From: Cyanophyceae cyanobacterium
GTDB taxonomy: Bacteria > Cyanobacteriota > Cyanobacteriia > Cyanobacteriales > JBHJGN01
Length of the DNA stretch: 64,000 bases
Direction: 5' to 3'
NCBI GenBank assembly: GCA_050331735.1
Contig: JBHJGN010000015.1
Location: 32,001 to 96,000 of the forward strand
A program made the translations under genes and the position numbers. Below, in pieces: positions 4,871 to 49,851 of this stretch (its first letter is position 1; each line of letters opens with the position of its first letter). The notes beneath the pieces are model-generated. The model saw only the letters and a program-made list of their open reading frames with translations. It did not search any database and was not told the DNA's origin.

Positions 4871-4960
4871 GTCCCTCCGGGACGGGGAAGCGGTGCGACC
4901 CAGCGCCGCCGGAAGGCGCACTGGGTAGCGCACCAAGACAGGGAAAGGGGGAAAGGGACC
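4871..4960. repeat. Hairpin/GGGGAAA dispersed repeat plus a long GC-rich stem-loop between convergent genes
   Basis: GTCCC-TCC-GGGAC at 4871-4883 abutting the TAA; GGTGCG-ACCCAG-CGCC...GGCG-CA-CTGGGT-AG-CGCACC stem; GGGAAAGGGGGAAAGGG. Confidence 0.8.
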
Positions 4961-5023
4961 ACTCTAAGAGTCATCACTCCAGACTGGCGACCTCGCTGTT
5001 TCCTCTTCAATATCTAGCGACAC

Positions 5024-6253
5024 TTACTCCCAGCGAATTGCTTCTTCCTTGCCCTGGAGCGCCGCAGTCACGATTTGGTAAAGCCATTTGGCTTCGTGAT
5101 GAAGGTTAAACTCCTGTTCTACCTTCGTCCGACCATTTTTCCCGAGTCGAGTCCGCAGGTCGGCATCGCTCAGAAGCTTGTGAATTTTGTCTGCTAGCGC
5201 ACCGGCATCTCCGGGAGGAACCAAGTAACCATTGATGCCTTCTTCTACCAGTTCGCTCACGCCGGCAATGCGAGTGGTGACGACAGGAACCCCAGCCGCC
5301 AGCGCTTCCATCAGCACCACCGGCAACCCTTCTGCAAAGCTAGGCAGCACGAAAACATCGGCAGTCTGCATATACTGACGGACTTCTGCCTGAGACTTGT
5401 AGCCGACCAACTCTACATTATCAGTCAGCTCTAATCTCGCGATCGCCGCTTCTAGCTCAGCTCGCTCGGAGCCATCGCCGACTAGAGTTAGAATAACGTC
5501 AGGATAAGTCTGTTTGAGAATGGCGAGGCTGTCAAATAACACGGGTAAGCCCTTGGTCGCGGCTAGCCGTCCGACAAACAGCAGACGGCCCTGCTGTTGG
5601 CGATGAGTAACGATGGTAAAGAGGCTCGGGTCGATCCCGCAGTGAACAATGTGCAGGCGATTCCAGGTTTCCGGTGGCGCGAACAACATGCACTGACTGC
5701 GGCAGAAGTGGCTGATGCAGGACACAAACAAAGCTCGCTGAATCTTGGCGTCCAAACGCCAGCGATAGGGTTCAAAAAAAATGTAGGGGCCGTGGATGGT
5801 AAAGCTAAAGGTAAACCCTCCCAGTTCAGCCGCGAGCATCGCTACGCTACAGCTAGAGTCGGCCAAATGATTGTGCAAATGCTCAATATCCTGCTTATGC
5901 ATCTGTTCAGCAACGATTCCGGCTTCAGCGAAGTAAAACAGTTGGTAGAGAGCCTTGAGCAGACCATCTGGGCAAGTTAACCACGCTAGCTTCAGGGCTC
6001 GCCAGTAGTGACCCGGTTTGGCGAGCAGGAGTAATAAATGCGCCCGCACCAGAGCCACCGGATGAGCGGGCAGGATATAGAAGGTGCGATCACGTTCTGT
6101 CTGCTGTTCGGGGCCAACCAGGTGTTCGTCTCCGGTTCTCCGGACCGAGAAAGTCTGCACCTCTACCCCTTGCTCGCGCAGCGTCATCACTTCCCGCTGA
6201 ATAAAAGTATCTGTTGCCCGAGGATATTCCCCGGTTAGATAGGCGATGCGCAT
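5024..6253 (-). CDS. Glycosyltransferase family 4 (WcaL-like)
   Basis: YPRATDTFIQREV N-terminus, FVGRL..KG, PSFAEGLPVVLMEA (E-x7-E). Confidence 0.92.
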   Translation of the reverse strand: MRIAYLTGEYPRATDTFIQREVMTLREQGVEVQTFSVRRTGDEHLVGPEQQTERDRTFYILPAHPVALVRAHLLLLLAKPGHYWRALKLAWLTCPDGLLKALYQLFYFAEAGIVAEQMHKQDIEHLHNHLADSSCSVAMLAAELGGFTFSFTIHGPYIFFEPYRWRLDAKIQRALFVSCISHFCRSQCMLFAPPETWNRLHIVHCGIDPSLFTIVTHRQQQGRLLFVGRLAATKGLPVLFDSLAILKQTYPDVILTLVGDGSERAELEAAIARLELTDNVELVGYKSQAEVRQYMQTADVFVLPSFAEGLPVVLMEALAAGVPVVTTRIAGVSELVEEGINGYLVPPGDAGALADKIHKLLSDADLRTRLGKNGRTKVEQEFNLHHEAKWLYQIVTAALQGKEEAIRWE

Positions 6254-6365
6254 AGTTTTTAGGTCGTAGAAATCATTCAGTTAAGTAGGCAGAAGAACTA
6301 TCAAATTTGTCCCCAACTCCCGACTGACCCGCCTTCATCGGTCAACAGGGTCAGCGAGCCTAGTC

Positions 6366-10342: not shown

Positions 10343-12307
10343 ATGAGAAGAAAACCCGAACAAACAAAGCGGTTGGAGGTCGGAAAAGCCTTCCCCCGCT
10401 CGAATACAGCTTTATCTAAACAGTCTCATCGAGAGCGAGATATGTCTTCTCATCCAGCGGCTCAGCCGGGAACCGAATCAAATACCACTCCTCAACGAGG
10501 GTGGTTGAGCTTTCCGTGGTTAGCAGCCCTGCTGATTGTCATTTTTGGAAGCGTTGGCTTTGTGGCCACTTCGGCTTTACTCAAGCTACCGGCGGTCGCC
10601 AACTGTCCGAAGATTTTCTTGCCTTTGGCTTCGGCTTCCAAGCGCCTGTACTGTGCCCAAGTGGAAGCCGAGAAAGCGACGGTCGATAGTCTTTTAGAAG
10701 CGATCGCCTTAGTCAAAGGCTTACCCGCTAATCATCCCCTCCGCAGCGATATTGACCATTTAGTTGAGCAATGGTCGGTCGAGATTCTCGATTTAGCCGA
10801 AGCCGATTTTCAAGCGGGTAAACTGAAGACGGCGGTTGCTACGGCCCGCCGCATTCCTCAGAACGTACGCGCCTATAGTTTGGTTGAAGAACGAGTTGAG
10901 CGCTGGCAAACAATTTGGTCCAAAGCCGAGCAAATCGCTGCCGCCACCGAAAAACAACTGCGTCAGTCTAACTGGAACGAGGCTTTTCGAGCAGCGGTTA
11001 AACTTGTCCAGCTCGATAATCACTACTGGGCCACGACGAAGTATCGCGAAACCGTTGATACAATTCAGGTAGCCCGCCAGGAAAGCCAAAAGCTTGATGA
11101 CGCTTTTGCCGCCCTGGAAACAGATAGCGTTGACGACTGGCTGGAAGCCGTTGCCGAAGCGGATCGGATCGCCACCAGCAGCTATGTCTATCAAGAAGCT
11201 CAAGAATTAATTGAGCAAGCCCGAGAAAAGTTCCTCGGCTACATCCAGAGACTCCTCGTCAATCGGAACTGGCAGCCGCTGCTCTCGGTGACAAATCGGC
11301 TACCGGGGAGCTTAGAGCTAGAACAGGTAGACGAATGGCGACAGCTAGCCAGGGCCGGAACCAGCGCTGACCAAGGCACGATTTCTAGCTTAGAGAGAGC
11401 CATCGCAGAGGCAGAAAGAATTGAGGAAGACAGTGCTCTTTACGCAGATGCCCAGCAGCTCGTCGAGCGCTGGTATCTGGAAATTGACGACCTGCACCAT
11501 CTCTTGCAGGCGCGGGAACTAGCGCGTGCTGGCAACATCGGCGCTCTGTCAGAAGCGATCGCGGAGGCTCGCGTTATTCCGCGAGCCAATCCCCGTTACC
11601 AAGAAGCCCAGGCGGAAATTCAGGACTGGAGACGCCAAATTGAAACCATTGAAGACCAGCCGTACCTCTCTCGGGCCAGAGAGTTAGCCAGCGGCGGCAC
11701 GATCCGAGCGTGGCAGGCGGCGATCGCCCAAGCTCGCCTCATTGCTTCTGGACGCGCTCTGCATTCAGAAGCCCAGAGAGAAATCCGCCGCTGGCGCAAC
11801 AGAATTGAACGCGAGGAAGATCAGCCTTATCTCGATGAGGCCGTCGCATTGTCCTACTCGAAGAATTACGCCGACGCGATTAACTTCGCGCAGCAAATTC
11901 GACCGGGAAGAGTGCTTTATGAAGAAGCGCGGAACAAAATTCAAGCATGGCAGCGAGAGATTCGGGCGGAGGAACTGATCGAAAGAGCTTATGAAGTGGC
12001 TCGTTCGAGAACGCCAGCCGCTCTGCTTGAGGCTATCAGAATTGCGCAGCAGGTGCCTGCGTCAACCGAGCCGAAGCGGGAAAGCCAGCAGGCTCTCAAC
12101 CGCTGGGGAAATCAGCTCTTAGCGATCGCCATCGACACCGCAGATAATTCTTTAAGAGACGCCATTGACCTGGCCGCCAAAATTCCCTCCGGCACTGAAG
12201 CCTACCAACCAGCGCAGGCGCAAATTGCTCGGTGGGAAGCCAGACTGAATCCCCCACCGTTAGTGATTCCGGAGTCTCCCTTCAGCGAAGAACCGCAGGA
12301 ACTGTAA
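10343..12307 (+). CDS. Membrane-anchored alpha-helical repeat protein (conserved cyanobacterial hypothetical); start may be 10442
   Basis: N-terminal TM (WLAALLIVIFGSVGFV), CPKIFLP...LYCAQ Cys pair, repeated AI.xA..IP....Y.EAQ..I..W helical units. Confidence 0.8.
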   Translation: MRRKPEQTKRLEVGKAFPRSNTALSKQSHRERDMSSHPAAQPGTESNTTPQRGWLSFPWLAALLIVIFGSVGFVATSALLKLPAVANCPKIFLPLASASKRLYCAQVEAEKATVDSLLEAIALVKGLPANHPLRSDIDHLVEQWSVEILDLAEADFQAGKLKTAVATARRIPQNVRAYSLVEERVERWQTIWSKAEQIAAATEKQLRQSNWNEAFRAAVKLVQLDNHYWATTKYRETVDTIQVARQESQKLDDAFAALETDSVDDWLEAVAEADRIATSSYVYQEAQELIEQAREKFLGYIQRLLVNRNWQPLLSVTNRLPGSLELEQVDEWRQLARAGTSADQGTISSLERAIAEAERIEEDSALYADAQQLVERWYLEIDDLHHLLQARELARAGNIGALSEAIAEARVIPRANPRYQEAQAEIQDWRRQIETIEDQPYLSRARELASGGTIRAWQAAIAQARLIASGRALHSEAQREIRRWRNRIEREEDQPYLDEAVALSYSKNYADAINFAQQIRPGRVLYEEARNKIQAWQREIRAEELIERAYEVARSRTPAALLEAIRIAQQVPASTEPKRESQQALNRWGNQLLAIAIDTADNSLRDAIDLAAKIPSGTEAYQPAQAQIARWEARLNPPPLVIPESPFSEEPQEL

Positions 12308-12308
12308 A

Positions 12309-12330
12309 GCGCCGCAGGCGCGGGGAAGCA
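12309..12330. repeat. Hairpin repeat unit (GCGCC-GCA-GGCGC + GGGGAAG)
   Basis: Same 13-mer hairpin at 45312; 1 nt after the stop codon. Confidence 0.7.
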
Positions 12331-12528
12331 GCTTTCGCGCTCGGGAGATAAAACTGGCAGCGACTTCGGCGAGGATTGTTCCTTCCCATCACTCCGTTAC
12401 AAAGGGGGCGATCGCCTCGCCTCCTGGCGACAACTCACCTCTAGAGGCTACATCAAAAGCTCTGCTTGCCGTCCCCAGTTTTGATAGGTTAAATAGTAAT
12501 GAGCAATACCTAATCGGGGTTGAGAAGC

Positions 12529-14370
12529 ATGGCGCTAATTGTTCAAAAGTACGGAGGAACGTCCGTTGGTTCGGTAGGCAGAATTAAAGCAGTAGCGGAA
12601 CGAGTGCTGAAAACGCTTGACAACAATCATTCCGTTGTTGTCGTCGTTTCGGCAATGGGCAAAACGACAGATAGGCTCGTTGGTTTAGCCAAGGAAATCT
12701 CCGCTCATCCCAGTCGTCGAGAGATGGATATGCTGCTGTCTACTGGAGAGCAAGTGTCGATCGCGCTACTGAGTATGGCGCTTCAGGAGCAAGGACAGGC
12801 GGCAATTTCTCTCACTGGCGCTCAGGTAGGAATTGTTACCGAAGCCGAATACAGTCGCGCCCGCATTCTTCAGATTAAAACCGAGCGCATTAAGCGCCAT
12901 CTCCACAAAGGAGAGGTGGTCGTCGTGGCCGGATTTCAGGGGATGAGCAGCAGCGCCGATTTTGAAATCACCACCCTCGGACGCGGCGGTTCTGATACCA
13001 CCGCCGTCGCTTTAGCTGCTTCTCTAGGAGCAGAACGCTGCGAAATTTATACCGACGTTCCCGGCATTTTGACGACCGATCCTCGCCTCGTCCCGGATGC
13101 TCAACTGATGTCAGAGATTACCGCCGATGAAATGCTGGAGTTAGCCAGTTTAGGTGCGAAGGTGCTGCACCCAAGAGCCGTAGAAATTGCTCGGAACTAT
13201 GGAGTTCCTCTGGTGGTGCTGTCAAGCTGGAGTGAAGATTTAGGAACTAAAGTTGTGTCTCCGCTGCCCAATCCGCGTTCTCTTAGGGGGCTAGAAATTA
13301 CTAAAGCCGTCGATGCGGTTGAGTTTAGTACCGATCAGGCCAAAGTAGCGCTCTTGAGAGTGCCGGATTGCCCCGGGGTGGCGGCCCGTTTGTTTGGCGA
13401 AATCGCCCACCAAAACGTCGATGTTGACCTGGTGATTCAATCGATTCACGAAGGCAACAGCAACGATATTGCCTTTACGGTAGTGCAGGGAGTACTCAGC
13501 AAAGCCGAAGCCGTGGCCGAAGCGATCGCCCCTGCGCTGCGCAGCCACCCGACTGCCACCGAGGAGGCAGAGGTGATGGTGGAGCGGCAAATTGCCAAAG
13601 TCGCCATTTCAGGAGCCGGGATGATCGGTCGTCCCGGGATCGCCGCTCGCCTGTTTACCACCCTATCCGAGGCCGGAGTTAACATCGAGATGATTTCTAC
13701 CTCCGAAGTCAAGGTAAGCTGCGTCATTGATGCGTCAGCGTGCGATCGCGCGATCGCCGCTCTTTGCCGCGCTTTTGAGATTAATAGTTCTCCCGTTCAC
13801 TTAGCAGCCTCCTCAGCAGTCTTGCCGCCAGTGCGGGGAGTGGCACTAGATGTCAATCAAGCCCGCCTTGCTATTCGTCACGTTCCAGACCGCCCTGGTT
13901 TGGCCGCGCGAATCTTTGGTTTGCTGGCGCAGCACAACATCAGCGTAGACATGATTATTCAATCTCAGCGCTGCCGCATTATTAATAGCATTCCCACCCG
14001 CGACATCGCCTTTACGGTAGCGCAGGCCGACGCTCAAGCGGCCATTACTGCCTTGAAGAGCCTAGCTCCTACGATTAACTGTGGCGAAATCTCTCTCGAT
14101 ATAGAAATTGCCAAGGTTAGCATTGTGGGGGCAGGAATGGTCGGTCAACCCGGCGTGGCGGCTCGCTTATTTGCCGCTCTAGCCCAACAGAAGATTAATA
14201 TTCAGATGATTACTACATCCGAAATCAAAATTAGCTGCGTTGTCTCTCAAGAAGATGGAGTGAGTGCTTTAAAAGCCGCCCACGAAGCGTTTGAGTTGGC
14301 AGGTGATTGTCCCTCCGGGACGGGGAAAGGGGAAAGGGAAATTTGTCCCTCCGGGACGGGGAAAGGGTAA
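12529..14370 (+). CDS. lysC: Aspartate kinase (cyanobacterial long form with multiple ACT domains), repeat-derived C-terminal tail
   Basis: [39 protein letters not shown]; repeated ACT units ([17 protein letters not shown]). Confidence 0.97.
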
Positions 14371-14415
14371 GTCGCTCCGCGACCACGGAAAAGACGCAGG
14401 ATTAAGGAGCAAACA
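14309..14415. repeat. Hairpin/GGGGAAA repeat cluster overlapping the lysC 3' end
   Basis: GTCCC-TCC-GGGAC at 14309 and 14345, GTCGC-TCC-GCGAC at 14371. Confidence 0.85.
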
Positions 14416-14564
14416 CCTTATACCGGTTAGCCATGTTATTATCTTGCAGATAATTTTCTCTATGCTATCGCTTAGTCAACTGGATTGACCAACTCCCACG
14501 GCTAAAAGCACGTGGGATTCAAGGTTCAAGCAGAGATTGCTGCCTCAGACAGACTGACATCTCC

Positions 14565-15134
14565 TCACCTCAGAGTTGTAGCCCCAACTCTATGAATTAC
14601 TCGGCTGGCGTTGGCATCGCGTCTGTGCTTAGTCGAACAGCCTGGACACACCCAATAACGCTTGTTCAAGTCAAGCTTATCGATCACAAAACCACACTCA
14701 GAACAGGTTTTAGAGCTAGGAAGCCAACGGTCAATATAGCTAACTACCTTGCCTTTTTTCTCGGCTACAAAGTCCAGGATTTTCAGGAACTCAGCAAACG
14801 CCAAGTCACTAATTTTCCGACCCCACAAACGCTGCATTCCCTTGAGGCTAAGAGTTTCAAAGAATAAATAGTCAAACTTGTCGGTCAACTGATGTGCTAG
14901 CTTCCAAAACCAATCAGAGCGACGATTAACTACTTTCTCGTGCACTCGAACTAGGTTTTGTCTTGCCTTTTCTCGACTCCTAGAACCTCTCTTCTTTGTA
15001 GAATGCTGACGACTAGCTAGCTTTAGCTGCTTGAGAGATTGTTTAAGGAACAATGGCGATTTAATATCGATGCCGTCCGAGCAAGTTAGAAACGTTTTGC
15101 AGCCAAAATCAAAGCCTGCGCTGTTACCTGTCAT
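14565..15134 (-). CDS. tnpB: TnpB C-terminal part (RuvC + zinc ribbon)
   Basis: GFDFG (RuvC-I D), FFETL (RuvC-II E), SSKTCSECG...CPGC, RRDANA (RuvC-III D). Confidence 0.88.
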   Translation of the reverse strand: MTGNSAGFDFGCKTFLTCSDGIDIKSPLFLKQSLKQLKLASRQHSTKKRGSRSREKARQNLVRVHEKVVNRRSDWFWKLAHQLTDKFDYLFFETLSLKGMQRLWGRKISDLAFAEFLKILDFVAEKKGKVVSYIDRWLPSSKTCSECGFVIDKLDLNKRYWVCPGCSTKHRRDANASRVIHRVGATTLR

Positions 15135-15649
15135 GGCTGAGGCTTGTGATTGTCTACAAAATCTGTCACGACATACACAAACAACTCGCCTAGAGCATTG
15201 CGTTTGATCGTGACTGTTTTAATCTTCCCTTGGATTTCTCGACTGAGCCAGAATTTAAAGACTCGCTTTCCAATCCTCAACTGATTACCAGCCAAGAAGT
15301 TGTAGCCATTCTGCTTGAGCGTAATAGATTTATACTTAATTCTCTTTCTAAAGTTTGGTGGTCTAACTCCCTTACTGTGGCGTTTGAAAAATAGCTGATA
15401 GGCTCGGTCTATCCGCTGAACAATATCCTGAACAGCCTGTGCGTTAACCAAGAGCCAATAAGCGTTTCTACGTCTGAGCTTAGCTATATGCTTCATCAGC
15501 TTGTTCGGGTTCAAATGTTTCTTGAACATCCGATAATAGCGCTTATGCAAAGCAATACAGTGGTTATAGACACTGCTGGCTGCATTGATAGCGCGATGCA
15601 GATGTTTGTTTCGTTTGTGGTGATATAGCTTGAATTTAAACGTTTTCAC
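15131..15649 (-). CDS. tnpB: TnpB N-terminal part; ends in an ATGA overlap with the C-terminal ORF (frameshift or split gene)
   Basis: KTFKFKLY, VYNHCIAL, QAVQDIVQRIDRAYQLFF, PNFRKR, IKTVTIKRN motifs typical of a TnpB N-half. Confidence 0.88.
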   Translation of the reverse strand: MKTFKFKLYHHKRNKHLHRAINAASSVYNHCIALHKRYYRMFKKHLNPNKLMKHIAKLRRRNAYWLLVNAQAVQDIVQRIDRAYQLFFKRHSKGVRPPNFRKRIKYKSITLKQNGYNFLAGNQLRIGKRVFKFWLSREIQGKIKTVTIKRNALGELFVYVVTDFVDNHKPQP

Positions 15650-15687
15650 ACGTCTATAATAACACTAGATAGACATAAGTGATAGAC

Positions 15688-16083
15688 ATGACAGAGAGAT
15701 ATAGACGAACACACACAACCGTTTCAGACGTTAATTATCATTTCATCTGGATCCCGAGAAGACGACGGAAGGTATTAAAGGGGGAGATCCAAAAAAGGCT
15801 TAACGAACTGATCCATCAAGCCTGATCCGAACTAGATTGTCGATTAATTTCTCTTGCCATAGAACCTGACCACGTGCATCTATTCATCAATGCACCTTGT
15901 CATTTGGGTATTCCAGCTATCATGCACAAAGTCAAAGGCGCATCGGCTAGATATTTAAGAAAAGAGTTTCCCCAGTTGATGAAGCTGCCTTCAATGTGGA
16001 CTCGCAGCTATTTTGTTTCTACGGCTGGACAAGTTAGCTTAGAGACAAGTACAGAATATGTCGAAGCACAAGGAAAAGACTGA
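15688..16083 (+). pseudogene. tnpA: IS200/IS605 Y1 transposase with in-frame TGA
   Basis: ATG 15688 reads MTERYRRTHTTVSDVNYHFIWIPRRRRKVL...HQA*, TGA at 15823-15825; same frame continues DHVHL (HUH), WTRSYF, EYVEAQ. Confidence 0.9.
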
Positions 16084-16277
16084 CTGCGGTTAAAACCGCC
16101 AGCTCGTTTTTCTACCCACGGCTGAAGCTCGTGGGCTATCAAACTGCGACGGTTCCTGTATTGCCGTAGCAGAGAGTTTTGCCGATGCGAGACTTCCGAT
16201 TATTCCACTCCTGAGTCACGATTAGAAGAATCTAATCTACTTGCGTTAAACTCACCATAGATGACGCTTGCAAATTC

Positions 16278-17420
16278 ATGCCAGATTTCAAAGAAGCATC
16301 GAATACAGCGTTCGATCGTCAGATGATGCAGCGGTGTCTTCAGCTCGCTCGTCGGGCGCTCGGGCAAACTTCACCAAATCCGCTGGTAGGAGCGGTGATT
16401 GTTCGTGATGGCGAAATCGTTGGCGAAGGATTCCATCCTGGTGCTGGACAGCCCCATGCGGAAGTGTTTGCCCTCAGAGAAGCCGGGGAACAGGCGAAGG
16501 AGGCTACAGCCTACGTTAGCTTAGAACCTTGCAATCATTTCGGACGGACGCCGCCCTGTTCAGAAGCGCTGGTTGCGGCTGGAGTGGCTAAGGTGGTGGT
16601 TGGCATGGTCGATCCCGATCCCCGCGTCTCTGGAGGCGGGATTGAACGACTGCGGAGTGCCGGGATTGAAGTGGTTGTTGGGGTAGAAGAAGCAGCCTGT
16701 CGTCAGCTCAATGAAGCTTTTATTCATCGCGTTCTTTACCAGCGTCCCTTTGGAATTTTGAAGTATGCTATGACCCTAGACGGCAAAATTGCCACCCAAA
16801 AGAGTCATAGTGCCTGGATCACTGGAGTTGCCGCCCGTCGCCAGGTCCATCAGCTTCGAGCGGCCTGCGATGCGGTGATCGTTGGCGGCAATACCGTTCG
16901 TCAAGACAACCCCCGCCTCACCAGTCATCAGGCTGGAGCGCACAATCCCTTACGGGTGGTGATGAGTCGCACGTTAGAGTTACCGCTGGAGTCCCATCTC
17001 TGGCAAACTGAGGAAGCGCCTACGTTAGTTCTGACTCAAAAAGGAGCTAATTTGCCGCTGCAAGAGCAGCTCCGGCATAACAAAGTCGAGGTTGTTGAGC
17101 TATTGACCCTGACGCCAACAGCGGCCTTGGCTCATCTCTACGAGCGCCAGTTGAATAGCGTCCTGTGGGAATGTGGCGGAGTGCTGGCTGCCAGGGCGAT
17201 CGCTGAAGGAGCTATCCAAAAGGTGGCTGCATTTGTTGCTCCTAAAATTATTGGAGGCCAAGGCGCTCCTTCCCCGGTTGGCGATTTAGGATTAGGTAGA
17301 ATGACCGATGCTTTGGAGCTGGAAAAAGTATCGCTGCGCTTGGTAGAATCTGATTTCTTAGTGGAGGGATATTTGCCTGCTCAGGCGTGGTTATCGAAGC
17401 TGGGGGGGCTAGATAGATAG
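16278..17420 (+). CDS. ribD: Riboflavin biosynthesis deaminase/reductase
   Basis: TSPNPLVGAV, HAE, LEPCNHFGRTPPC, LKYAMTLDGK, ECGG. Confidence 0.96.
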   Translation: MPDFKEASNTAFDRQMMQRCLQLARRALGQTSPNPLVGAVIVRDGEIVGEGFHPGAGQPHAEVFALREAGEQAKEATAYVSLEPCNHFGRTPPCSEALVAAGVAKVVVGMVDPDPRVSGGGIERLRSAGIEVVVGVEEAACRQLNEAFIHRVLYQRPFGILKYAMTLDGKIATQKSHSAWITGVAARRQVHQLRAACDAVIVGGNTVRQDNPRLTSHQAGAHNPLRVVMSRTLELPLESHLWQTEEAPTLVLTQKGANLPLQEQLRHNKVEVVELLTLTPTAALAHLYERQLNSVLWECGGVLAARAIAEGAIQKVAAFVAPKIIGGQGAPSPVGDLGLGRMTDALELEKVSLRLVESDFLVEGYLPAQAWLSKLGGLDR

Positions 17421-18065: not shown

Positions 18066-18680
18066 CTATACCGCCGGATCGCGATCGAGAATAACAATGT
18101 GGCGATCGCTTCCTAAAGCAATCAGTTCCCGACGCTGGAACTCTCCTAATAACCGCGTCACCGTGACTCTAGTTGTCCCAATTGCGTTAGCAATATTTTG
18201 GTGAGTAAAGCGAACGGCTAAGCGAGTCCCTCCAGAAATAGGCTCTCCCATTTCCTGTTTGAGCAATAGCAACAGTTCGTGTAGCCTCTCCTCTACCCGG
18301 CGCAAACCAGCAATCGACAATAAAGCTTCTGTCTGTCTCACGCGACGCACTACTCCCCCCAGTATCGTTTGAGCAAGCTGAGCAGATGTTTCAATTTCGC
18401 CCAAAGAGTACCAGCGCAAATAAACATCCGATAGAGCTTTCGCCTGATAAGGCTCAACGCGAGTTAGCCAAGTTCCAAAGAAGGTTGCTGGTTTGGCCCA
18501 TCCAAGCAGTAGTTCCTCGCCGCTGTGATGAATTTTACTGAGTTGGACAACGCCGCGATAAACCTGCCAAACCCCCTGTGCTACTAATGGAATTTCATCT
18601 CCCTTGTCATAGAAGTGAAGCCTTCTTCCTTCCCCGTACTCTTGAGCTTTTTCGAGCTTCCCTTTGTCGGTTACAAGCAT
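18066..18680 (-). CDS. Crp/Fnr family transcriptional regulator
   Basis: N-terminal cNMP-like domain; HTH THQNIANAIGTTRVTVTRLL. Confidence 0.92.
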   Translation of the reverse strand: MLVTDKGKLEKAQEYGEGRRLHFYDKGDEIPLVAQGVWQVYRGVVQLSKIHHSGEELLLGWAKPATFFGTWLTRVEPYQAKALSDVYLRWYSLGEIETSAQLAQTILGGVVRRVRQTEALLSIAGLRRVEERLHELLLLLKQEMGEPISGGTRLAVRFTHQNIANAIGTTRVTVTRLLGEFQRRELIALGSDRHIVILDRDPAV

Positions 18681-31605: not shown

Positions 31606-31905
31606 GTGAATGTGCTAGTAGCAGAAACAATCTTGATTGTGCTTTTGGGGTTAATTCCCGCTTTGCTATCCATTATCGCGATTCGTAGGACAAAGCGAAG
31701 ATGGCAGACAAGGTTCAGGCAAGCCCGCACAGCCTCTTTTTATCGGCAGGTCCGCTCAAGCTACTTATCAACCCCGAACGAAGCAGCACCTAAACCTTTT
31801 GTTGGCGATACTAGCTGTCGCTTTAATGCTCGTTCTCCCTATCTGCGCTGTGCTGTTAATCCTGATGGTCCCTGTGAGGAGTGTATTCATTACGAGACAA
31901 AATAA
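31606..31905 (+). CDS. DUF6464-like cyanobacterial protein with N-terminal TM
   Basis: VGDTSCRFNARSPYLRCAVNPDGPCEECIHYE motif. Confidence 0.8.
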   Translation: MNVLVAETILIVLLGLIPALLSIIAIRRTKRRWQTRFRQARTASFYRQVRSSYLSTPNEAAPKPFVGDTSCRFNARSPYLRCAVNPDGPCEECIHYETK

Positions 31906-39865: not shown

Positions 39866-40037
39866 GTGCCGCTGGCGCGGGGAAAAGGGCAAAGGGGAAG
39901 GGGGAAACTGTCCCTCCGGGACGGGGAAGAACACAGGTTCAAGGAACAAACTTAACAACCGCCCCCTTTCCCCGTTGCGAAGCAACTTTTTTCCCGTTGC
40001 GGAGCAACTATTTCCCCTTTCCCCGTCGCGCAGCGAC
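39866..40037. repeat. Composite hairpin/heptamer repeat abutting the ilvD stop codon
   Basis: Hairpins at 39866, 39910, 39974, 39996, 40025; core AAGAACACAGG. Confidence 0.88.
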
Positions 40038-41714
40038 TTAATTGAGATCGGTGACCGCTCCGACACTGCTCGAGGAAACCAGCTTGGCGTATTTTGCTAA
40101 GACCCCTTTGGTATAGCGAGGCTGGGGAGAATGCCAGTTGGCGCGACGCTGAGCTAATTCTGTCTCTGAAACATCGAGCTGCAATAACCGATTGGGGGCA
40201 TCGATGGTAATTTGATCGCCCTCCTGCACCAAGGCAATCGTGCCTCCAACTGCGGCTTCCGGCGCAACGTGCCCGACAACCATGCCGTAGGTTCCTCCAG
40301 AGAAGCGTCCGTCCGTAATTAGTCCTACAGAGTCTCCTAATCCGGCACCAATCAGAGCAGAAGTGGGCGCTAGCATTTCTCGCATTCCCGGACCCCCTTT
40401 AGGCCCTTCGTAGCGCACGACAATGACATCTCCAGGCTGAATTTGCTTACTGAGAATGGCCTCTAAGCAGGCTTCTTCGGATTCAAATACCCGGGCTGGT
40501 CCAGTAATTTTGGGAGTTTTCACGCCGCTAATCTTGGCAACGGCTCCTTCGGTTGCCAGATTGCCTTTGAGTACCGCTAAATGACCTTGCTGATAGACGG
40601 GCTGATGCCAGGGATGAATCACCTCCTGATGGTTAGGCGGTTCATCGGGAACATCTGCCAGCACCTCTGCGAGGGTTTGCCCGGTGATGGTGAGGGCATC
40701 GCCGTGGAGCAAATTGTGGTTTAGCAGCATTTTCATCACTTGAGGAATCCCGCCAGCCTGATGCAGGTCGGTGGCAACGTAGCGACCAGAGGGCTTAAGG
40801 TCGCACAGCACCGGGACTCGCCCCCGAATGGTTTCAAAATCGTCGAGGGTTAACTTAACGCCAATGGTGTGAGCGATCGCCAACAGGTGCAGGACGGCGT
40901 TGGTAGAGCCACCCACCGCCATAATCACGGCAATGGCGTTTTCAAAGGCTTGACGAGTCAAAATCTGGCGGGGCAGGATTTGGGCGCGGAGCGCTTCTGC
41001 CAGCACAAAGGCGCTTTTTTCGGTACTTTCTGCTTTTTCCTGGTCTTCTGCCGCCATCGTCGATGAATAGGGCAGGCTCATCCCCATCGCTTCAAAAGCA
41101 GAGGACATGGTGTTGGCCGTAAACATGCCGCCGCAGGAACCCGCCCCAGGACAGGCATGGCGCTCAATCTCGGTTAACTCTGCGTGGTCAATTTTCCCGG
41201 CACTATACTGTCCCACCGCTTCAAAAGCACTGACCACTGTTAAATCCTGTCCGTTGTAGTGTCCGGGTTTAATCGTGCCGCCATAGACAAAAATGGCCGG
41301 AATATTCAGGCGAGCGATCGCAATCATCGCTCCCGGCATATTCTTATCACAGCCACCAATGGCCAACACTCCATCCATGCTCTGCCCGTTGCAGACGGTT
41401 TCAATCGAGTCAGCGATCACTTCCCGCGATACCAGGGAGTATTTCATGCCTTCTGTGCCCATCGAGATCCCGTCGCTGATGGTAATCGTGCCGAACATCT
41501 GGGGCATTGTGCCTGCCTGCTTGAGGGCAGCTTCGGCTCTTTGAGCGAGTTTGTTGATGCCCATGTTGCAGGGAGTAATAGTGCTGTAGCCGTTGGCTAA
41601 ACCCACAATCGGTTTGGTAAAATCGGCATCGCCAAATCCGACCGCCCGCAGCATAGCGCGGTTTGGCGATCGCTGATGACCTTGGGTGATAGCTTGACTT
41701 CTGCGATTGTTCAT
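40038..41714 (-). CDS. ilvD: Dihydroxy-acid dehydratase
   Basis: [50 protein letters not shown]. Confidence 0.97.
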
Positions 41715-42701: not shown

Positions 42702-43895
42702 ATGGATCGCATGCTGTCTTTTGCTGCGGATGAAAACAAACCGAAAGGATTTAACGATGTTCGGACCTGCGGGATTAATCTGAATCATTGGTACGCCGTG
42801 GCCCGCAGCACTGAGGTGCAGGACGAGCCAGTAGGTGTCCGGCTTTGGCAGCAAAATATTGTTTTATACCGAGCCAAAGGAGAAATTCAGGCTTTAGAAG
42901 ACCGCTGTCCTCACCGTCAGGTGAAGCTGAGTGGTGGTAGAGTCATTGGCGATCGCCTTGAGTGCGCCTATCACGGCTGGCAGTTCAACCGAGAAGGCCG
43001 TTGCGTGACAGTTCCGAGCTTAACCCCTAAACAAAAGCTGCCCGCCTGCCAGATTCGCCGTTATCCGGTGCAGGAACGCGATGGCTTGATTTGGCTCTTT
43101 CCTGGAGATGCCGCACTGCCAGCAGCGCTGGAGCCGCTAGCAATACCGGAGTGGGACCATCTCAACTATATCGCTACGGTGTCAACGATTGAGTGTCGGG
43201 GGCATTTCTCATACCTGATCGAAAATTTGATGGATATGTACCACGGGCATCTCCACCAAGACTATCAGGCGTGGGCCTCAGCAGCTCTACAGGAGTTAAC
43301 CACAAGCAACCAGCGCGTTGATGCCTACTACGAGGCCCAAAGTTACTACAAAATCGACAAAATTTGGTCGATTTCTCAGCTCTTTTTTCCCAGCCTGCGC
43401 CGCCTTCATCCAGAACCCTTGACCGTCAGCTATATTTATCCCCACTGGGTGTCGTCTCTTGGGCAAGATTTCAAAATCTACTGTCTATTTTGTCCAGTCG
43501 ATCTCACCACAACTCGCGCTTATCTAATTCACTTTACCTCTCTCAACGCCTTCTGGCGCTTGCACAAACTCCCGGTTTGGTTTCGCCGATGGGTCAAAAA
43601 TAGTTTATTTGGTTCTGCTCAACGGTTACTCGACGGTCTGGTTCGTCAGGATGTCGCTATGATTGAGCAGGAACAGCAGGCGTCTTTAGCCAATCCGCAG
43701 CAGCGCAATTATGAACTCAATCCAACGATTGGAAAAGTTCAGCAGTTAATTCGCCAGCAAAGTCGCTCTGCGACGGGGGGAGTCTCCTTCGGGGACGGGA
43801 AAAGGGGAAAGGGAAATCTGTCCCTCCGGGACGGGGAACGGGAAAATTGTCTAGTGCAGGACGAGCAAAGAACACAAGATTACGGAACAAGCTGA
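42702..43895 (+). CDS. Rieske non-heme iron oxygenase alpha subunit, repeat-derived C-terminal tail
   Basis: CPH...CAYHGW Rieske motif; ENLMDMYHGHLH iron site. Confidence 0.93.
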   Translation: MDRMLSFAADENKPKGFNDVRTCGINLNHWYAVARSTEVQDEPVGVRLWQQNIVLYRAKGEIQALEDRCPHRQVKLSGGRVIGDRLECAYHGWQFNREGRCVTVPSLTPKQKLPACQIRRYPVQERDGLIWLFPGDAALPAALEPLAIPEWDHLNYIATVSTIECRGHFSYLIENLMDMYHGHLHQDYQAWASAALQELTTSNQRVDAYYEAQSYYKIDKIWSISQLFFPSLRRLHPEPLTVSYIYPHWVSSLGQDFKIYCLFCPVDLTTTRAYLIHFTSLNAFWRLHKLPVWFRRWVKNSLFGSAQRLLDGLVRQDVAMIEQEQQASLANPQQRNYELNPTIGKVQQLIRQQSRSATGGVSFGDGKRGKGNLSLRDGERENCLVQDEQRTQDYGTS

Positions 43896-43972
43896 ATAAT
43901 CACTCCCTTTCCCCCTGCCCCTTTGTCCTTTTCCCGCCGCGAAAGCGGCTTCCCTTGCCGTCCTGGAGGGAC
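43762..43972. repeat. Composite hairpin/heptamer repeat overlapping the Rieske gene 3' end
   Basis: Hairpins at 43762, 43820, 43960; core AAGAACACAAG...AATAATCACTCC. Confidence 0.85.
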
Positions 43973-44618: not shown

Positions 44619-45311
44619 ATGAGTTTCTTCAATTCCACAGAACCGATTTTCCGCCGCAAGCAAGAAGCCCTCGATTTCCAGGATTTACAGGGGCTGCTCC
44701 GGCTCCAAATTAGAATCAAAAATAGAACGCTGTTTCGGGTGCTCTATACTCGCATCGATCAGGTGTTTGTGCTTTGGGGACTCATCTCAGCCACGATTTT
44801 TATAACGGCTCAGTTCGCGCCGATTAGCTGGGTGGCCCAGGCAATTTTCTGGTCTGTGCTAACCGTTTTCGGGACTGCCGCGATGGTGGTGCTCACTCAC
44901 TTCTGGGTAAGAGTGGAGCGTCTGCGCTGGGTATTATACGGTTGGGTCTTGTTAATGCTAGGAGGAACAGCACTCACCGATTTAGGGATTTTTCTGGGGT
45001 GGGGACAGGTGTTGATGCATCTCTGTCATCTGTGGCTAGGCGTGAGCGCTGCTGGCTACTTCTGCACTGGGTTCGGCTTACGTTCCCGCGCCTTCACTCT
45101 CTCTGGATTGGTTCACCTGTTCGGTATAGCGCTCTTACCCTCTGTTGGAGGCTGGCAGTTTTTAACCACTGGCTTGGTCATGGCTGCTAATCTGCTCGTT
45201 TTCGCCGAAACCCAGTGGGATATGCGTCCACCTATTGAGGAGTATAGTGTCTTAAGCAAGGAGCAAAAGCAGTTTAATCGTCAGCAATATCAGTTTCGGC
45301 AAGCCTCATAA
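44619..45311 (+). CDS. Conserved cyanobacterial membrane protein
   Basis: About 6 TM segments; YTRIDQ and EtQWDMRPP motifs. Confidence 0.78.
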   Translation: MSFFNSTEPIFRRKQEALDFQDLQGLLRLQIRIKNRTLFRVLYTRIDQVFVLWGLISATIFITAQFAPISWVAQAIFWSVLTVFGTAAMVVLTHFWVRVERLRWVLYGWVLLMLGGTALTDLGIFLGWGQVLMHLCHLWLGVSAAGYFCTGFGLRSRAFTLSGLVHLFGIALLPSVGGWQFLTTGLVMAANLLVFAETQWDMRPPIEEYSVLSKEQKQFNRQQYQFRQAS

Positions 45312-45444
45312 GCGCCGCAGGCGCGGGGGAGATCGCTCCGCGACGGGAAACGGAGAAGGGGTAAGGGGGAAAGGGGAAAAATCTCGGGCTATAGAAAAAG
45401 CTCAATAATGACTCCTTTGCCCCCTTCCCCGTCCCGCATCGGAC
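45312..45444. repeat. Composite hairpin/heptamer repeat between convergent genes
   Basis: GCGCC-GCA-GGCGC directly after TAA; G-rich arm; core AATAATGACTCC; C-rich arm ending GTCCCGCATCGGAC. Confidence 0.85.
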
Positions 45445-45467
45445 TATCCTTCCTGGAGAGACGTTCA

Positions 45468-46187
45468 CTAAATCAATTTAACCAGGACTCCTGGTTCTTT
45501 TTGAATCGGCAACACGTCCAGAGTATTGGTTCCGGCACAGTATGCTAAATCTTTATGGCCATCTAAGCGCAGCAGGCGCTGACCGTGACTAGCCTGCCGG
45601 AACATTTCTAAGAGATTTTTCTGCCATTGCGAGTAAAGCGCGATCGCCGCTACGACTTCATCGTTTCCGATTGTCACCTGGGACTGGATGGCTTGAGCGA
45701 TCGCTCCGGCGCAGGCAGTGTCTTCGAGAGAGTAGCCTCCCTGCCAGCCTGAACCAAGAAGCCACACTGTTTCAGGCTGGTGTTCTGTGAGATAGTTGAC
45801 AGCCGTTTGAACGTTCACCTGAGCCGCTGTAATCACAATAGGCGCTTTTTCGACTCGTTGGAGGGCGCGAGTTCCGTTGGTCGTACTCAAAAACAAGCGC
45901 TTACCCTGCACCACCTCTGGAGTGCAGTCTAGCGGAGAATTGCCCAGATCGCAGCCCTCTACTTTCGCCCCGCCTCTTTCTCCGGCTCGCAGTCGCTTCT
46001 GGGGCGACCAGGATTCGCTACTCTGCATGAGTTGGTCAATATCGCTGAAGGCTTGCACGGCTTCGGCCCCAGCGTGTAGTGCTGTAGCGATTGTTGTGGT
46101 GGCTCTAAGCACATCGATGACGACAGCACACTGGGGCAGGCTATCGGGAGGAGTAGATTCGGGAGTATGATAAACGAAAAGCTTCAC
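45468..46187 (-). CDS. comB: 2-phosphosulfolactate phosphatase family protein
   Basis: [38 protein letters not shown]. Confidence 0.93.
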
Positions 46188-47108: not shown

Positions 47109-47110
47109 GT

Positions 47111-49570
47111 TTAATCAATCCAGTAGCGCTGTCGCTGAAACGGATACGTTGGCAAAACCACTTTCTGGCGAGCATAGTCTCGGTCGAAGGCGACCCAATC
47201 GATGGTCGCGCCCTGAACGTAAAGCTGAGCTAGACTCTCCAAAATTTGTTCCCACCCTAATTGCGGATACTCGCTAACGGTGAAGATTTCTGGTTTCTGG
47301 CTAGGCGAAGTGAACTTGCTTTCCAAGAGCCGAAAGCGAGTATCATTGATTTCGGCTATTTCTGCTGCTCCGCCATCCGCCTCAGACTGTGCAACCGCAA
47401 TTAGCAATGGTTGCAATAGGCAGCATTGGCGTAACAGTTGCCGGTCGATAGCTGCTAATACAGGTAACTGCAACCCCGACTCAGATGTGGCTCCCTTTAG
47501 CTCGGCTTTAGTACGGCTAGTAGCAAATTGGCTTGGGAGTTTGGTTTCGTGAAGCGATCCTCCCAGAGCACTAACGGATGTGAGCTGCTGCCGTTCCCGG
47601 TCAACAGCGAGCCTCAAACCGTCTTCTAAGCTAATCACTCCCGCAACGCAGGCAGCAACAATCTCTCCTACTCCTGCTCCGGTGACGACAGCAGGCGACA
47701 CTCCCCACGATATCCATAGTTGAGCGAGGGAGTATTGGAGCGCCAAGGCGGCAGCGTCAGGAAGCCGATGAGCAGGGGCAGACAGCCGCTCTAGCAGGGG
47801 TTGATCGAAATCCCTACTGAGGAGGGCAGCGCAGCGGTCGAGGGGAGCGCGAAGAGGCTGATGGGAGAGGAGATTCGGAGTGCAGACCGGACACTCTTCT
47901 GGAAAGATAAAAGCAATCTGGGGGAGTGTCCGGTTGACTCGTCCTTGGAAAAGGTCGGCAGTTTGTCCTGGGCGATCGCTAGCCAGCCTGGTTTGCAGTT
48001 CAGCCGCAGTAGCAGCGCTCGCGGCTAAACGATGGTTAAAGTGCGATCGCCCCGTATTAGCACTAAAGCACATATCGGCCACAGCAACGTTAGGGTGACG
48101 CTCTAAAAATCGACAATACCGTTGCCTTAACTCCGACAGTGCTTGCTCACTACGAGCCGAAAGCGCCAGCAAATGGGCCGGACGCTCACAGCTTTCCTCA
48201 GCTTTCTCTCTTAACGGTGCCTCCGCCACCACTACATGAGCATTGGTCCCGCTAAAGCCAAAGGCACTGACTCCGGCCACTCTCTGCGCCTGCTGCCAGG
48301 AAACGAGTTCTGTTGGGATGGTCAATGCTAGCTCATGCCAATCCACGCGCGGGTTTGGCTTGTGAAAATGAAGATTGGGCGGAATTTCCTGATGCTTGAG
48401 CGCGAGCACCACTTTAATCAGTCCGGCAATCCCAGCCGCCGCTTCTAAATGGCCGATGTTGGTTTTGACCGAGCCGACGATGAGCGGTGACTCGCGCTCC
48501 TGAAAAACGCTTCCTAAAGCGCCCAGTTCGATGGGATCTCCCAGCGGTGTTCCCGTTCCGTGAGCTTCAATATAGCTGACCTGAGCCGGAGCCATCCGGC
48601 CCGCCTTCAACGCTTGCTGAATAACGGCTTGCTGAGAGGGACCATTCGGCGAGGTCAGTCCACTGGTGCGACCGTCTTGATTCGTCGCCGAACCGCAAAT
48701 GAGAGCTAAGATATTATCCCCCTCGGCAACAGCATCGCTCAAACGCTTGAGCACAACCACCCCACCTCCTTCCGCGCGGACAAACCCATCCGCCTCGGCA
48801 TCAAACGACCGACAGCGACCGTGGCGAGACAGCATTCGTGCTTTGGAAAAATTGATGCTCACTTCTGGGGTCAGCAGGCGGTTGACTCCTCCTGCTAGCG
48901 CCAGATGACATTCTTGATGCCGCAAACTCTGGCAAGCGAGATGCACTGCTACAAGAGAAGAAGAACAGGCGGTATCAACCGAAAGGCTCGGTCCAGTAAA
49001 GCCGAACAGGTAAGACAAGCGCCCTGACGCGGTGCTATGGGTGTTGCCCGTCGTCAGATAGGCATCAATCTCGGTAGCGGTTCTCCTCAGCAAGCGTTGC
49101 CAGTAGTCGATGCCGCAGATGCCGACAAACACCCCCGTTAAACTGCCCTCAAGCTTCTCTGGTGCTATACCGGAGTATTCTAAAGCCTCCCAGCTAACTT
49201 CCAACAGCAGGCGCTGTTGAGGGTCTAAACTCAAAGCCTCGCGAGGAGCAATGCGAAAAAACTGAGCATCGAACTCCTGGTGATGGGGAACAAACCCGCC
49301 ATGACGGGTACACATTTTTCCGGGCGTGTCTGGATTAGGATCGTAGTACGCCTCACCATCCCAACGGTCTGGCGGCACTTCCGTAACCGCATTAACTCCC
49401 TGTTGCAGCAGTTGCCAGAACTCTTCTGGACTATCAGCTCCCCCCGGAAAGCGGCATCCCATCCCAATAATGGCAATTGGTTCGTGCTTTGCCTGCTCCA
49501 GCGCTTCCAGCTTCGTTTGGAGTTGCTTAAGCGCCAGCAAAGCTCGTTTAGTGGGAGAAAGTTCACTCAT
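47111..49570 (-). CDS. Type I PKS-like protein: docking helix + ketosynthase + degenerate AT, no ACP
   Basis: EPIAIIGMGCRFPG, DPQQRLLLE, DTACSSS, HGTGT, NIGHLE, VSAFGFSGTNAH; AT site reads GAGVG; ends LPTYPFQRQRYWID. Confidence 0.9.
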   Translation of the reverse strand: MSELSPTKRALLALKQLQTKLEALEQAKHEPIAIIGMGCRFPGGADSPEEFWQLLQQGVNAVTEVPPDRWDGEAYYDPNPDTPGKMCTRHGGFVPHHQEFDAQFFRIAPREALSLDPQQRLLLEVSWEALEYSGIAPEKLEGSLTGVFVGICGIDYWQRLLRRTATEIDAYLTTGNTHSTASGRLSYLFGFTGPSLSVDTACSSSLVAVHLACQSLRHQECHLALAGGVNRLLTPEVSINFSKARMLSRHGRCRSFDAEADGFVRAEGGGVVVLKRLSDAVAEGDNILALICGSATNQDGRTSGLTSPNGPSQQAVIQQALKAGRMAPAQVSYIEAHGTGTPLGDPIELGALGSVFQERESPLIVGSVKTNIGHLEAAAGIAGLIKVVLALKHQEIPPNLHFHKPNPRVDWHELALTIPTELVSWQQAQRVAGVSAFGFSGTNAHVVVAEAPLREKAEESCERPAHLLALSARSEQALSELRQRYCRFLERHPNVAVADMCFSANTGRSHFNHRLAASAATAAELQTRLASDRPGQTADLFQGRVNRTLPQIAFIFPEECPVCTPNLLSHQPLRAPLDRCAALLSRDFDQPLLERLSAPAHRLPDAAALALQYSLAQLWISWGVSPAVVTGAGVGEIVAACVAGVISLEDGLRLAVDRERQQLTSVSALGGSLHETKLPSQFATSRTKAELKGATSESGLQLPVLAAIDRQLLRQCCLLQPLLIAVAQSEADGGAAEIAEINDTRFRLLESKFTSPSQKPEIFTVSEYPQLGWEQILESLAQLYVQGATIDWVAFDRDYARQKVVLPTYPFQRQRYWID

Positions 49571-49576
49571 AGGGAA

Positions 49577-49851
49577 GCGCCTTCGGCGCGGGGAAGGGGG
49601 AAAGGGCAAAGGGGAAGGGGGAAAGGGACGCTTTAAAAAATATATAGCAGTCCTCACTCATTTGTGAAACAGGACGAGCGTTTCCCTCGCTTTATTTTCA
49701 ATGCTGAAAGGAATGACATAACGATACAAGATACTGTCAGAATTTCCCCAAAACTGCTGTACATCCCTTTACCCCTTCCCCGTTCCCCCTTCCCCGTCCC
49801 CGGCGGGGACATTTTCTCCCTTCCCCGTCCCGGAGGGACTCTTCCCCTTCT
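49577..49851. repeat. Composite hairpin/heptamer repeat with nested insertion; overlaps the cbiET 3' end
   Basis: GCGCC-TTC-GGCGC 49577, six G-runs 49590-49627, C-rich arm with GTCCC-GGA-GGGAC 49827. Confidence 0.85.
49643..49761. mobile_element. Possible second MITE type nested in the composite repeat
   Basis: TATAGCAGT...ACTGCTGTA imperfect terminal inverted repeats, 119 bp; single copy in the window. Confidence 0.5.

Follow-up and report, generated by a model that had tools for sequence, protein, structure and literature searches.

The 64-kb window of cyanobacterial DNA analysed here (positions 32,001 to 96,000 of contig JBHJGN010000015.1, Cyanophyceae cyanobacterium, assembly GCA_050331735.1; 50.3% G+C; all coordinates are those of the window) carries arrays of the heptamer GGGGAAA and its variants, in which short palindromic units are interleaved at ten intergenic places. 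Each unit is a module whose stem has 5 bp (in rare cases 6) and whose loop has 3 nt, giving a core of 13 nt, or 13-16 nt with filler bases. The flanking genes, called from open reading frames (ORFs) and Pfam, include those for aspartate kinase, an HhH-GPD glycosylase, a Rieske protein, a ketosynthase and a CbiE/CobL-like protein. The exact heptamer occurred 38 times in the window against 9.6 ± 3.0 expected, and its period-7 arrays were found by Tandem Repeats Finder (TRF). The 13-mers listed by an initial sequence-only reading were present at all 21 of its coordinates, and further units were located at 31906, 39866, 43781 (6 bp), 43936 (tetraloop), 43960, 45332, 45431 and 49797. That reading had described them as dispersed hairpin repeats tied to the heptamers; they are not independent elements but sit inside the heptamer arrays and were duplicated together with flanking heptamers.

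Perfect hairpins of five, three and five nucleotides were not enriched as a class (72 in the window versus 68.2 ± 7.3 in 50 dinucleotide shuffles). The pattern GTNNCNNNGNNACGGG, in which the loop and the two inner stem pairs are unconstrained, matched 15 times against 0.27 expected, and none of 100 shuffles reached 15 matches. The free inner pairs were Watson-Crick in 14 of the 15, the remaining match (31930) having T.G, and the loop on the G-rich strand was T-N-C in all except the unit at 43762 (TCT). As a null control, a longer version of the pattern was used in a genome-contig scan, which listed 85 chance matches from unrelated phyla; no cyanobacterium was among the matches listed. The inner positions paired in only 8 of these 85, and the loop was T-N-C in 2, versus 5 of 6 paired (6 of 6 with wobble) and 6 of 6 T-N-C for the window matches to the same longer pattern.

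An alignment of 24 regular units was paired in 118 of 120 cells, and four of the five stem pairs varied on both sides (22 cells). This covariation was matched by none of 500 shuffles, and slid controls were paired in 27-47% of cells. Because the aligned units had been selected as palindromes, the GTNNCNNNGNNACGGG count serves as the unbiased test. The covariance model built from the alignment identified 26 units at E ≤ 0.016 in the 64 kb, namely the 24 training units plus 49789-49815 and 45424-45449, and all 26 were intergenic or within the last codons of ORFs. Of the 85 unrelated loci, 46 (921,058 nt) were scanned with the model and gave no unit at E ≤ 0.01; five cyanobacterial plasmid loci (198,555 nt; best E = 0.61) gave none either. 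The family is therefore real, being both enriched and covarying. At least eight stem types were present, all of which pair, and their covariation upholds the earlier claim that structure rather than sequence is conserved.

The G-strand loops of the 26 regular three-base units were TCC in 12, TTC in five, TGC in three and GCA in two, with TAC, TCT, GCT and GCC once each. The first and last loop bases were held and the centre was variable, even inside one stem type, and the closing pair was C:G in 21 of the 24 aligned units. This agrees with the GNA loop rule of the sequence-only reading, since fixed outer bases with a free centre correspond to G-N-A on the C-rich strand. C(GNA)G triloops form a stable single-stranded DNA (ssDNA) mini-hairpin, and the loop rule favours the C-rich strand as the relevant one, as DNA or RNA. 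Nearest-neighbour energies (ViennaRNA, RNA and DNA parameters) were the same on both strands for every perfect unit, the parameters containing no GNA term. Wobble pairs lie on the G strand in three units (31930, 43781 and 39866) and on the C strand in two (43960 and 45332). At 31930, the hairpin itself stood, paired by T.G on the G-rich strand only; its reading as a GTA-loop hairpin failed on an A.C mismatch. Two classes of unit could be distinguished: GTNNC-type units inside arrays, with T-N-C loops, and GCGCC-type units at the outer array end, with mixed loops (12309 GCA, 39866 GCT, 45312 GCA and 49577 TTC).

The units occupy a strict phase in the arrays. On the G-rich strand, an A-run is followed by 0-3 A/T filler bases, the module and then directly GGG; the three positions 5' of 24 units were A or T in 62 of 72 bases, and GGG lay directly 3' of the unit in 21 of 24 aligned units. 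At five loci, the arrays form composites (D, 31906-32089; F, 39866-40037; G, 43762-43972; H, 45312-45467; I, 49577-49851) that on the plus strand always have the order G-array, spacer, C-array, the reverse order occurring 0 times. Because of this order, either strand, or its transcript, can fold as one long hairpin. RNA folds of the composites (eight folds, five loci) paired the G-arm with the C-arm at minimum free energies of -66 to -134 kcal/mol, and two of them had z = -5.0 and -4.2, with 0 of 200 shuffles equally stable. In these folds, part of the modules form local branches and part pair across the arms. Within a composite, the module types differ from one arm to the other, so the structure as a whole is not simply an inverted duplication.

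Alignment showed that composites D, F, G and H share a central spacer of about 35 nt, and that a copy of this conserved stretch also follows array C (14384-14420). The centre of locus I is unique (137 nt) and holds a promoter-like site for the ketosynthase gene. The conserved spacer had no Rfam match and no consistent promoter direction; a promoter inside it was considered and dropped, because its direction was inconsistent relative to the flanking genes. Likewise, the possibility that a remnant of the aspartate kinase C-terminus persists 3' of array C was rejected, that stretch aligning with the conserved spacer. No Rfam family fitted the arrays. Motifs of G-quadruplex (G4) type (G3+N1-7 x4) numbered six in the window, all in arrays, versus 0.92 in shuffles; these are sequence motifs only.

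The individual loci differ in the number and kind of modules. Array A (4871-4957, plus strand) opens with a GTCCC-type unit that abuts the stop codon of the histidine-kinase ORF 3704..4870; its G-rich heptamers occupy 4941-4957. Between the two lies a 45-nt GC-rich imperfect palindrome (4890-4935), unlike the 13-nt modules, which may be the real terminator of a convergent gene pair. Unit B (12309-12327, plus strand) is a single GCGCC-type boundary hairpin (loop GCA, G strand) with a G-run, situated 1 nt after the stop of ORF 10343..12307. Array C (14309-14383, plus strand) comprises units 14309, 14345 and 14371 with heptamers, and is followed by its spacer copy and then by an IS200/IS605 element. 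The left arm (G-array) of composite D (31906-32014, plus strand) begins directly after the stop of ORF 31606..31905 and carries units at 31906 (irregular, bulged), 31930 (T.G), 31959 and 31995; after the conserved spacer (32015-32051, plus strand), the right arm (32052-32089, minus strand) carries unit 32058 and ends at the stop codon of the HhH-GPD ORF (32090-32092, minus strand). Array E (32773-32872, minus strand) occupies a divergent intergenic region, 11 nt upstream of the likely HhH-GPD ATG (32759-32761), with units 32773 and 32802 in tandem at a period of 28-29 nt, unit 32830 and a degenerate unit at about 32855-32872 (minus strand).

Composite F has a left arm (39866-39928, plus strand) made up of the boundary hairpin 39866 (T.G), heptamers with a G4-type motif and unit 39910; on the non-coding strand of the GGDEF/EAL gene, this arm is 72 nt upstream of the start. 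Its spacer (39929-39962, plus strand) leads to a right arm (39963-40037, minus strand) with units 39974 and 39996, at a 22-nt tandem period, and 40025, the last of which abuts the ilvD stop codon (40038-40040). The left arm of composite G (43762-43868, plus strand) contains units 43762, 43781 (6 bp, T.G), 43820 and 43848 (irregular). After the spacer (43869-43903, plus strand), its right arm (43904-43972, minus strand) contains heptamers, unit 43960 (T.G on the plus strand) and, at 43936-43949, a 5-bp hairpin whose plus-strand loop is the tetraloop GAAA, and ends 2-8 nt before the start of the next gene (43975/43981). In composite H, a GCGCC boundary hairpin immediately follows the stop codon of ORF 44619..45311; the left arm (45312-45380, plus strand) continues with heptamers and includes unit 45332, which has A.C at its base on the plus strand. 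The spacer (45381-45412, plus strand) is followed by a right arm (45413-45467, minus strand) of heptamers, a bulged unit (45431-45444) and a degenerate remnant, ending at the stop codon of a ComB-like ORF (45468-45470). Just inside the 3' end of that ORF (45468..46187), a 7-bp palindrome with a 3-nt loop (45480-45496) resembles a bidirectional terminator because it is flanked by A-rich and T-rich runs. Composite I has a left arm (49577-49627, plus strand) with a GCGCC boundary hairpin (loop TTC) and five heptamers including a G4-type motif, situated 6 nt from the likely ketosynthase ATG (49568-49570, minus strand), and a right arm (49765-49851, minus strand) with heptamers, the 6-bp unit 49797 and unit 49827.

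Array ends were closely tied to gene boundaries. Among 14 array 5' ends, taken on the G-rich strand, seven were within about 5 nt of a stop codon, three were inside ORF ends, two were within 8 nt of a start codon and two were 46-72 nt from start codons. At 4871, 31906, 40037 and 45312, the array adjoined the stop codon with a gap of 0 nt; elsewhere, the gap was 1 nt (12309), 0-2 nt (32089) or 0-5 nt (about 45467). The ends inside last codons were those in the aspartate kinase, Rieske and CbiE-like genes: array C encodes the final 22 residues and stop of the aspartate kinase ORF 12520..14370, the left arm of composite G the final 44 residues of the Rieske ORF 42702..43895, and the right arm of composite I the stop and roughly 22 terminal residues of the CbiE/CobL-like ORF 49769..51106. 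The stop codons of the aspartate kinase and CbiE-like ORFs both come from a TAA-containing heptamer variant. All nine aspartate kinase homologues fetched end 6-13 residues past the ELAG/LAG motif, the window protein having a 22-residue repeat-coded tail; both CbiE homologues end 7-12 residues past IITA, compared with 27 in the window protein. Judged by these homologue ends, the repeat-coded C-terminal tails are foreign, the arrays having replaced the native C-termini of the aspartate kinase and CbiE-like proteins.

Searches with the tail peptides were less informative. The Rieske tail returned only the window's own protein among five candidates, and the CbiE-like tail returned its own protein and two homologues aligned at the native part, an approach too insensitive to show absence in either case, because the window's own aspartate kinase, which shares an 8-residue repeat-coded motif, was not returned. 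The aspartate kinase was at most 84% identical to any entry of the protein collection; its nearest named relatives were in Xenococcaceae, Kamptonema, Moorena, Kastovskya, Stanieria and Oscillatoria, and Nostoc was absent among the 120 best matches. Considering the aspartate kinase and CbiE-like searches together, the named relatives nearest to the window were Xenococcaceae, Kamptonema, Moorena and Spirulina. Arrays also produce false N-terminal extensions, in the ketosynthase ORF (47111-49657) and the HhH-GPD glycosylase ORF (32090-32842). Thus, for annotation, these arrays yield false C-terminal tails (aspartate kinase, Rieske and CbiE-like) as well as false N-terminal extensions (ketosynthase and HhH-GPD).

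Several features indicate how units change and spread. Tandem periods that include the heptamers were identified by TRF at 29 nt (31922-31985), 28 nt (32773-32831) and 22 nt (39967-40017), and units 14309 and 14345 are spaced 36 nt apart. Blocks are also shared between loci: 14302-14370 and 43777-43845 are 87% identical over 69 nt, and 39870-39907 and 49587-49624 are 87% identical over 38 nt. Every stem type occurs at several loci and every locus has several types, in no fixed order. The adjacent tandem copies 31930 and 31959 have identical 16-nt flanks and four differences within the 13-nt module (a compensatory pair, a change from wobble to Watson-Crick and the loop centre); therefore, modules turn over faster than their frame. 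An unrelated element of about 150 nt resembling MITEs (miniature inverted-repeat transposable elements), with terminal inverted repeats of about 10 bp, is present in three copies (37152-37290, 51171-51325 and, inverted, 58284-58436), each with an internal G-heptamer, short spacer and C-tract hairpin. One to four heptamers occupy the same internal site in these copies, showing that heptamer number changes in place; the 13-nt module is in none of the three.

The system is a local variant of known bacterial intergenic repeats, not a new kind of system, and it is compared here with three of them. As far as the cited passages describe them, repetitive extragenic palindromes (REPs), their bacterial interspersed mosaic elements (BIMEs) and the paired REPINs share several properties with the present units (Di Nocera et al. 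2013, PMC3733652; Bertels and Rainey 2011, PMC3116915). They are short extragenic palindromes in high copy number (here 26 in 64 kb), with sub-families that have alternative complementary stem residues and G.T pairs, and they lie mainly downstream of ORFs, between tandem and convergent genes, occasionally intruding into ORF ends; inverted pairs, reported as head-to-head dimers of REPs (Di Nocera et al. 2013, PMC3733652), fold as larger hairpins. In contrast to the 20-40 nt units in those passages, the present ones measure 13 nt (5-bp stem, 3-nt loop), are always phased in heptamer tandem arrays and have no unpaired GTAG/CGTC tag, the 5' flank being variable A/T filler and the 3' flank GGG. A GTC does follow the C-runs, paired inside the stem and not as a tag. 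Furthermore, the inverted pairs at the five loci are whole arrays with unequal module content rather than one-unit REPIN doublets, and no associated RAYT (REP-associated tyrosine transposase) was found within the 64-kb window.

The second comparison is with the small dispersed repeats (SDRs), of which SDR1-8 of Nostoc punctiforme were reportedly described by Elhai et al. in 2008 (in Genome Res 18:1484) as 21-27 nt long, associated with heptamer repeats and potentially hairpin-forming. SDRs resemble the modules in being very small non-coding repeats in a cyanobacterium that are tied to other iterated sequences. The core here is 13 nt versus 21-27 nt, and the comparison of the modules with SDR1-8 covers their descriptions. 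The cited passages also give SDR5 as a 21-nucleotide repeat (PMC13756078), associate SDRs with the highly iterated palindrome HIP1 (PMC4390886, PMC5861425 and PMC13756078) and place SDR or SDR-like repeats in Nostocaceae only (PMC5861425). HIP1 (GCGATCGC) is abundant in the window, with 66 sites versus 1.2 expected, which marks the DNA as cyanobacterial. Whereas SDR5 (21-24 nt) is found inside HIP1, none of the 26 units was within any of these 66 sites, and the arrays contained no HIP1. In addition, the nearest named relatives of the window are non-Nostocacean, a further difference from SDRs as those passages report them.

The heptamer framework itself corresponds to the short tandemly repeated repetitive (STRR) sequences, heptamer repeats reportedly described by Mazel in 1990. 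These have been known in cyanobacteria since then and, to our knowledge, have no accepted origin or function. Like STRRs, the present arrays are tandem, intergenic and G-rich, with four or more G-tracts and hence G4-type motifs. G-rich heptamers of Xanthomonas and Nostoc are described, in the cited passages, as lying 0-50 bp from stop codons on the coding strand and from start codons on the non-coding strand, with inverted pairs of heptamer arrays reported for Xanthomonas (Rehm et al. 2015, PMC4692102); the arrays here follow this strand-and-distance rule, some overlapping the stop. The heptamer differs, being GGGGAAA versus GGGGA(C/T)T or GGGAATC, and the published arrays are not, in those passages, described with interleaved palindromic modules. 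Unlike MITEs, the composites vary in module number and order and have no flanking direct repeat; the MITE-like element of the window differs from them in that its three copies keep constant ends. A blastn search of PLSDB with 14295-14395 matched 13 records, mostly from Nostoc, through the heptamers only; in none of them were heptamer and module combined. Nostoc plasmids have composites of G-array, spacer and C-array with the same heptamer and without 13-nt modules; therefore, as far as these few loci show, the framework is widespread and the module local. Directly at the 5' end of a GGGGAAA-type array, one Nostoc plasmid and one Gloeothece plasmid have a different 6-bp hairpin of unrelated sequence (L086, 19950-20110; L089, about 19940-20020). 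Its placement is that of the GCGCC-type boundary hairpins, a hint that hairpins and array ends may be linked more generally. No description of a 13-nt palindrome phased in GGGGAAA arrays was found in the literature searched, with the separation from SDR1-8 again a matter of their descriptions.

In our preferred reading, to which we give about an even chance, the modules are parts of a lineage-specific, REP/BIME- and SDR-like intergenic repeat system built on STRR-type heptamers, with self-complementarity as the constraint, slippage and heptamer-guided copying as the means of spread and a structured transcript end as the likely effect. Modules would be gained and copied with neighbouring heptamers via replication slippage or tandem duplication, and would reach other loci when heptamer homology drives copying, through gene conversion or template switching; a dedicated transposase would not be required. 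Only self-complementary modules would persist, and the stems would covary for this reason. Intramolecular template switching could restore perfect pairing in one step, and the cited passages propose it as a source of perfect stems and of their upkeep (PMC8794818). More tentatively, the arrays might provide a stable structured transcript end or intercistronic block, like REP/BIME elements, and could be weak bidirectional terminators, because the module on the C-rich strand is a hairpin followed by a U-rich tract. The position relative to genes is a consequence of composite geometry and is common to plain heptamer arrays.

Several observations weigh against this explanation. Terminator-like sites between 31500 and 51400 were not significantly enriched (30 versus 22.2 ± 4.5), the stability of a single stem as RNA is low (-3 to -7 kcal/mol), and an array end 2-8 nt before a start codon, as in composite G, is hard to reconcile with efficient termination. 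The loop rule and C:G closing pair match the C(GNA)G ssDNA mini-hairpin and favour a constraint at the DNA level, which the preferred reading does not need. The changed module within identical flanks at 31930/31959 resembles cassette replacement and could equally be attributed to a module-specific mobiliser, and a preferred target could be the reason why arrays abut stop codons exactly. Finally, the evidence base is one 64-kb window of one genome.

Alternatively, the modules might be primarily functional RNA, namely small intrinsic terminators on the C-rich strand (GC-rich hairpin, GNA/GNRA loop, then a U-rich tract) that are tandem and individually selected, the covariation reflecting selection. 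A simple scan flagged six modules on the C-rich strand (32007(-), 32058, 32802, 39974, 43960 and 49796), 10 of the 14 array ends lie at gene 3' ends, the order of G-array then C-array on both strands suits a bidirectional terminator, one arm has a GAAA tetraloop hairpin (43936) and a U5 run comes after the long fold in the ilvD 3' region. We nevertheless consider this unlikely, given the lack of overall enrichment of terminator-like sites, stems of 5 bp only and tracts of 3-6 U broken by C. Arrays A, B and C are wrongly oriented for terminating the transcript of their own gene, array E is in a divergent promoter region, and the downstream genes would lose transcripts because the left arm of composite I and the right arm of composite G reach start codons. 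The 13-mer (GT..C...G..AC) might alternatively be a double-stranded site for a dimeric DNA-binding protein or modification enzyme, with no hairpin formed, as its outer bases G1, T2, C5, G9, A12 and C13 are almost invariant. Such a site needs no complementarity of the inner bases and is therefore disfavoured: positions 3-4 complement 10-11 in 14 of 15 GTNNCNNNGNNACGGG matches, the remaining one having a wobble, whereas 8 of the 85 listed chance matches pair. Together with the GCGCC-type units, which lack the GT/AC ends, this makes a duplex site highly improbable.

Other explanations invoke an enzyme. The sequence-only reading had suggested a structure-recognising HUH/RAYT-type mobiliser acting on single 13-nt hairpins, with no such gene adjacent. 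The latter statement did not hold, as a broken IS200/IS605 tnpA lies at 15688-16080, 1.3 kb from units 14309-14383. It belongs to an element at about 14480-16150, directly after array C, in which tnpB is split in two on the minus strand (14565-15134 and 15131-15649) and tnpA, divergent from it on the plus strand, has an in-frame TGA (NCBIfam: IS200/IS605 family transposase). Such elements have small hairpins that are recognised as ssDNA, but the end hairpins of this one (14495-14516 and 16115-16135; 6-bp stem, 9-10-nt loop) share neither sequence nor geometry with the 13-nt modules. This ordinary, decayed insertion sequence places the family in the genome but offers no evidence for a Y1 enzyme moving the modules. 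The mobiliser proposal itself found no support, the units being phased modules of larger arrays and composites. Spelled out, the proposal is that a RAYT or other Y1 transposase encoded elsewhere in the genome would recognise C(GNA)G ssDNA mini-hairpins and copy or insert them at heptamer junctions. Of the 26 regular units, 21 have G-N-A loops on their C-rich strand and two more have them on the G-rich one. These loops, the C:G closing pair in 21 of 24 aligned units, the fixed insertion phase with its precise 3' junction, the 31930/31959 modules differing within identical flanks and the IS200/IS605-family genes in the genome are consistent with this proposal, and RAYTs are described as cleaving single-stranded REP DNA in the cited passages (Di Nocera et al. 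2013, PMC3733652). However, the 64 kb contain no RAYT, the sole Y1 gene is the decayed tnpA with tnpB and its own different end hairpins, the stem lacks an adjoining unpaired GTAG- or CGTC-type tag, one enzyme would need to accept at least eight stem sequences, and units move with heptamers and as multi-unit blocks. Mobilisation by an HUH enzyme is thus quite unlikely. In a bolder version, which we regard as a long shot, the modules would be the smallest autonomous-looking bacterial insertion cassettes (13-16 nt, below the 21-27 nt of SDRs), placed or exchanged as C(GNA)G ssDNA mini-hairpins at AAA|GGGG junctions by a structure-specific activity, and synthesis would stall at the hairpins, which would seed G-strand arrays that extend in a polar manner away from ORF boundaries. 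Such polar growth would account for the constant start of arrays at a hairpin or ORF end, and growth of both G strands at their 3' ends for the constant G-then-C order of paired arrays. If true, it would provide a mechanism for the origin of cyanobacterial STRR heptamers.

Whichever explanation applies, the window adds to the heptamer arrays of a non-Nostocacean cyanobacterium a covarying 13-nt palindrome in strict phase, in arrays anchored at stop and start codons that overwrite the last codons of at least two conserved genes. If the pattern holds genome-wide, it would offer a compact, sequence-defined system for testing effects on transcripts such as termination and protection of 3' ends, origin as a by-product of slippage or template switching, and enzymatic movement.

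Three further features of the window are separate from the arrays. The sole real Rfam match in the window was a glutamine riboswitch (RF01739, 56.1 bits, E = 1e-9) at 17772-17846 on the minus strand, between ORFs 16278..17420 and 18066..18680. Tandem repeats with 15/42-nt and 30-nt periods occur at 51592-52000 in the unassigned ORF 51510..52181 (minus strand), and those at 60419-61012, with 27/108-nt periods, encode RTX calcium-binding nonapeptide repeats in ORF 58556..61675.

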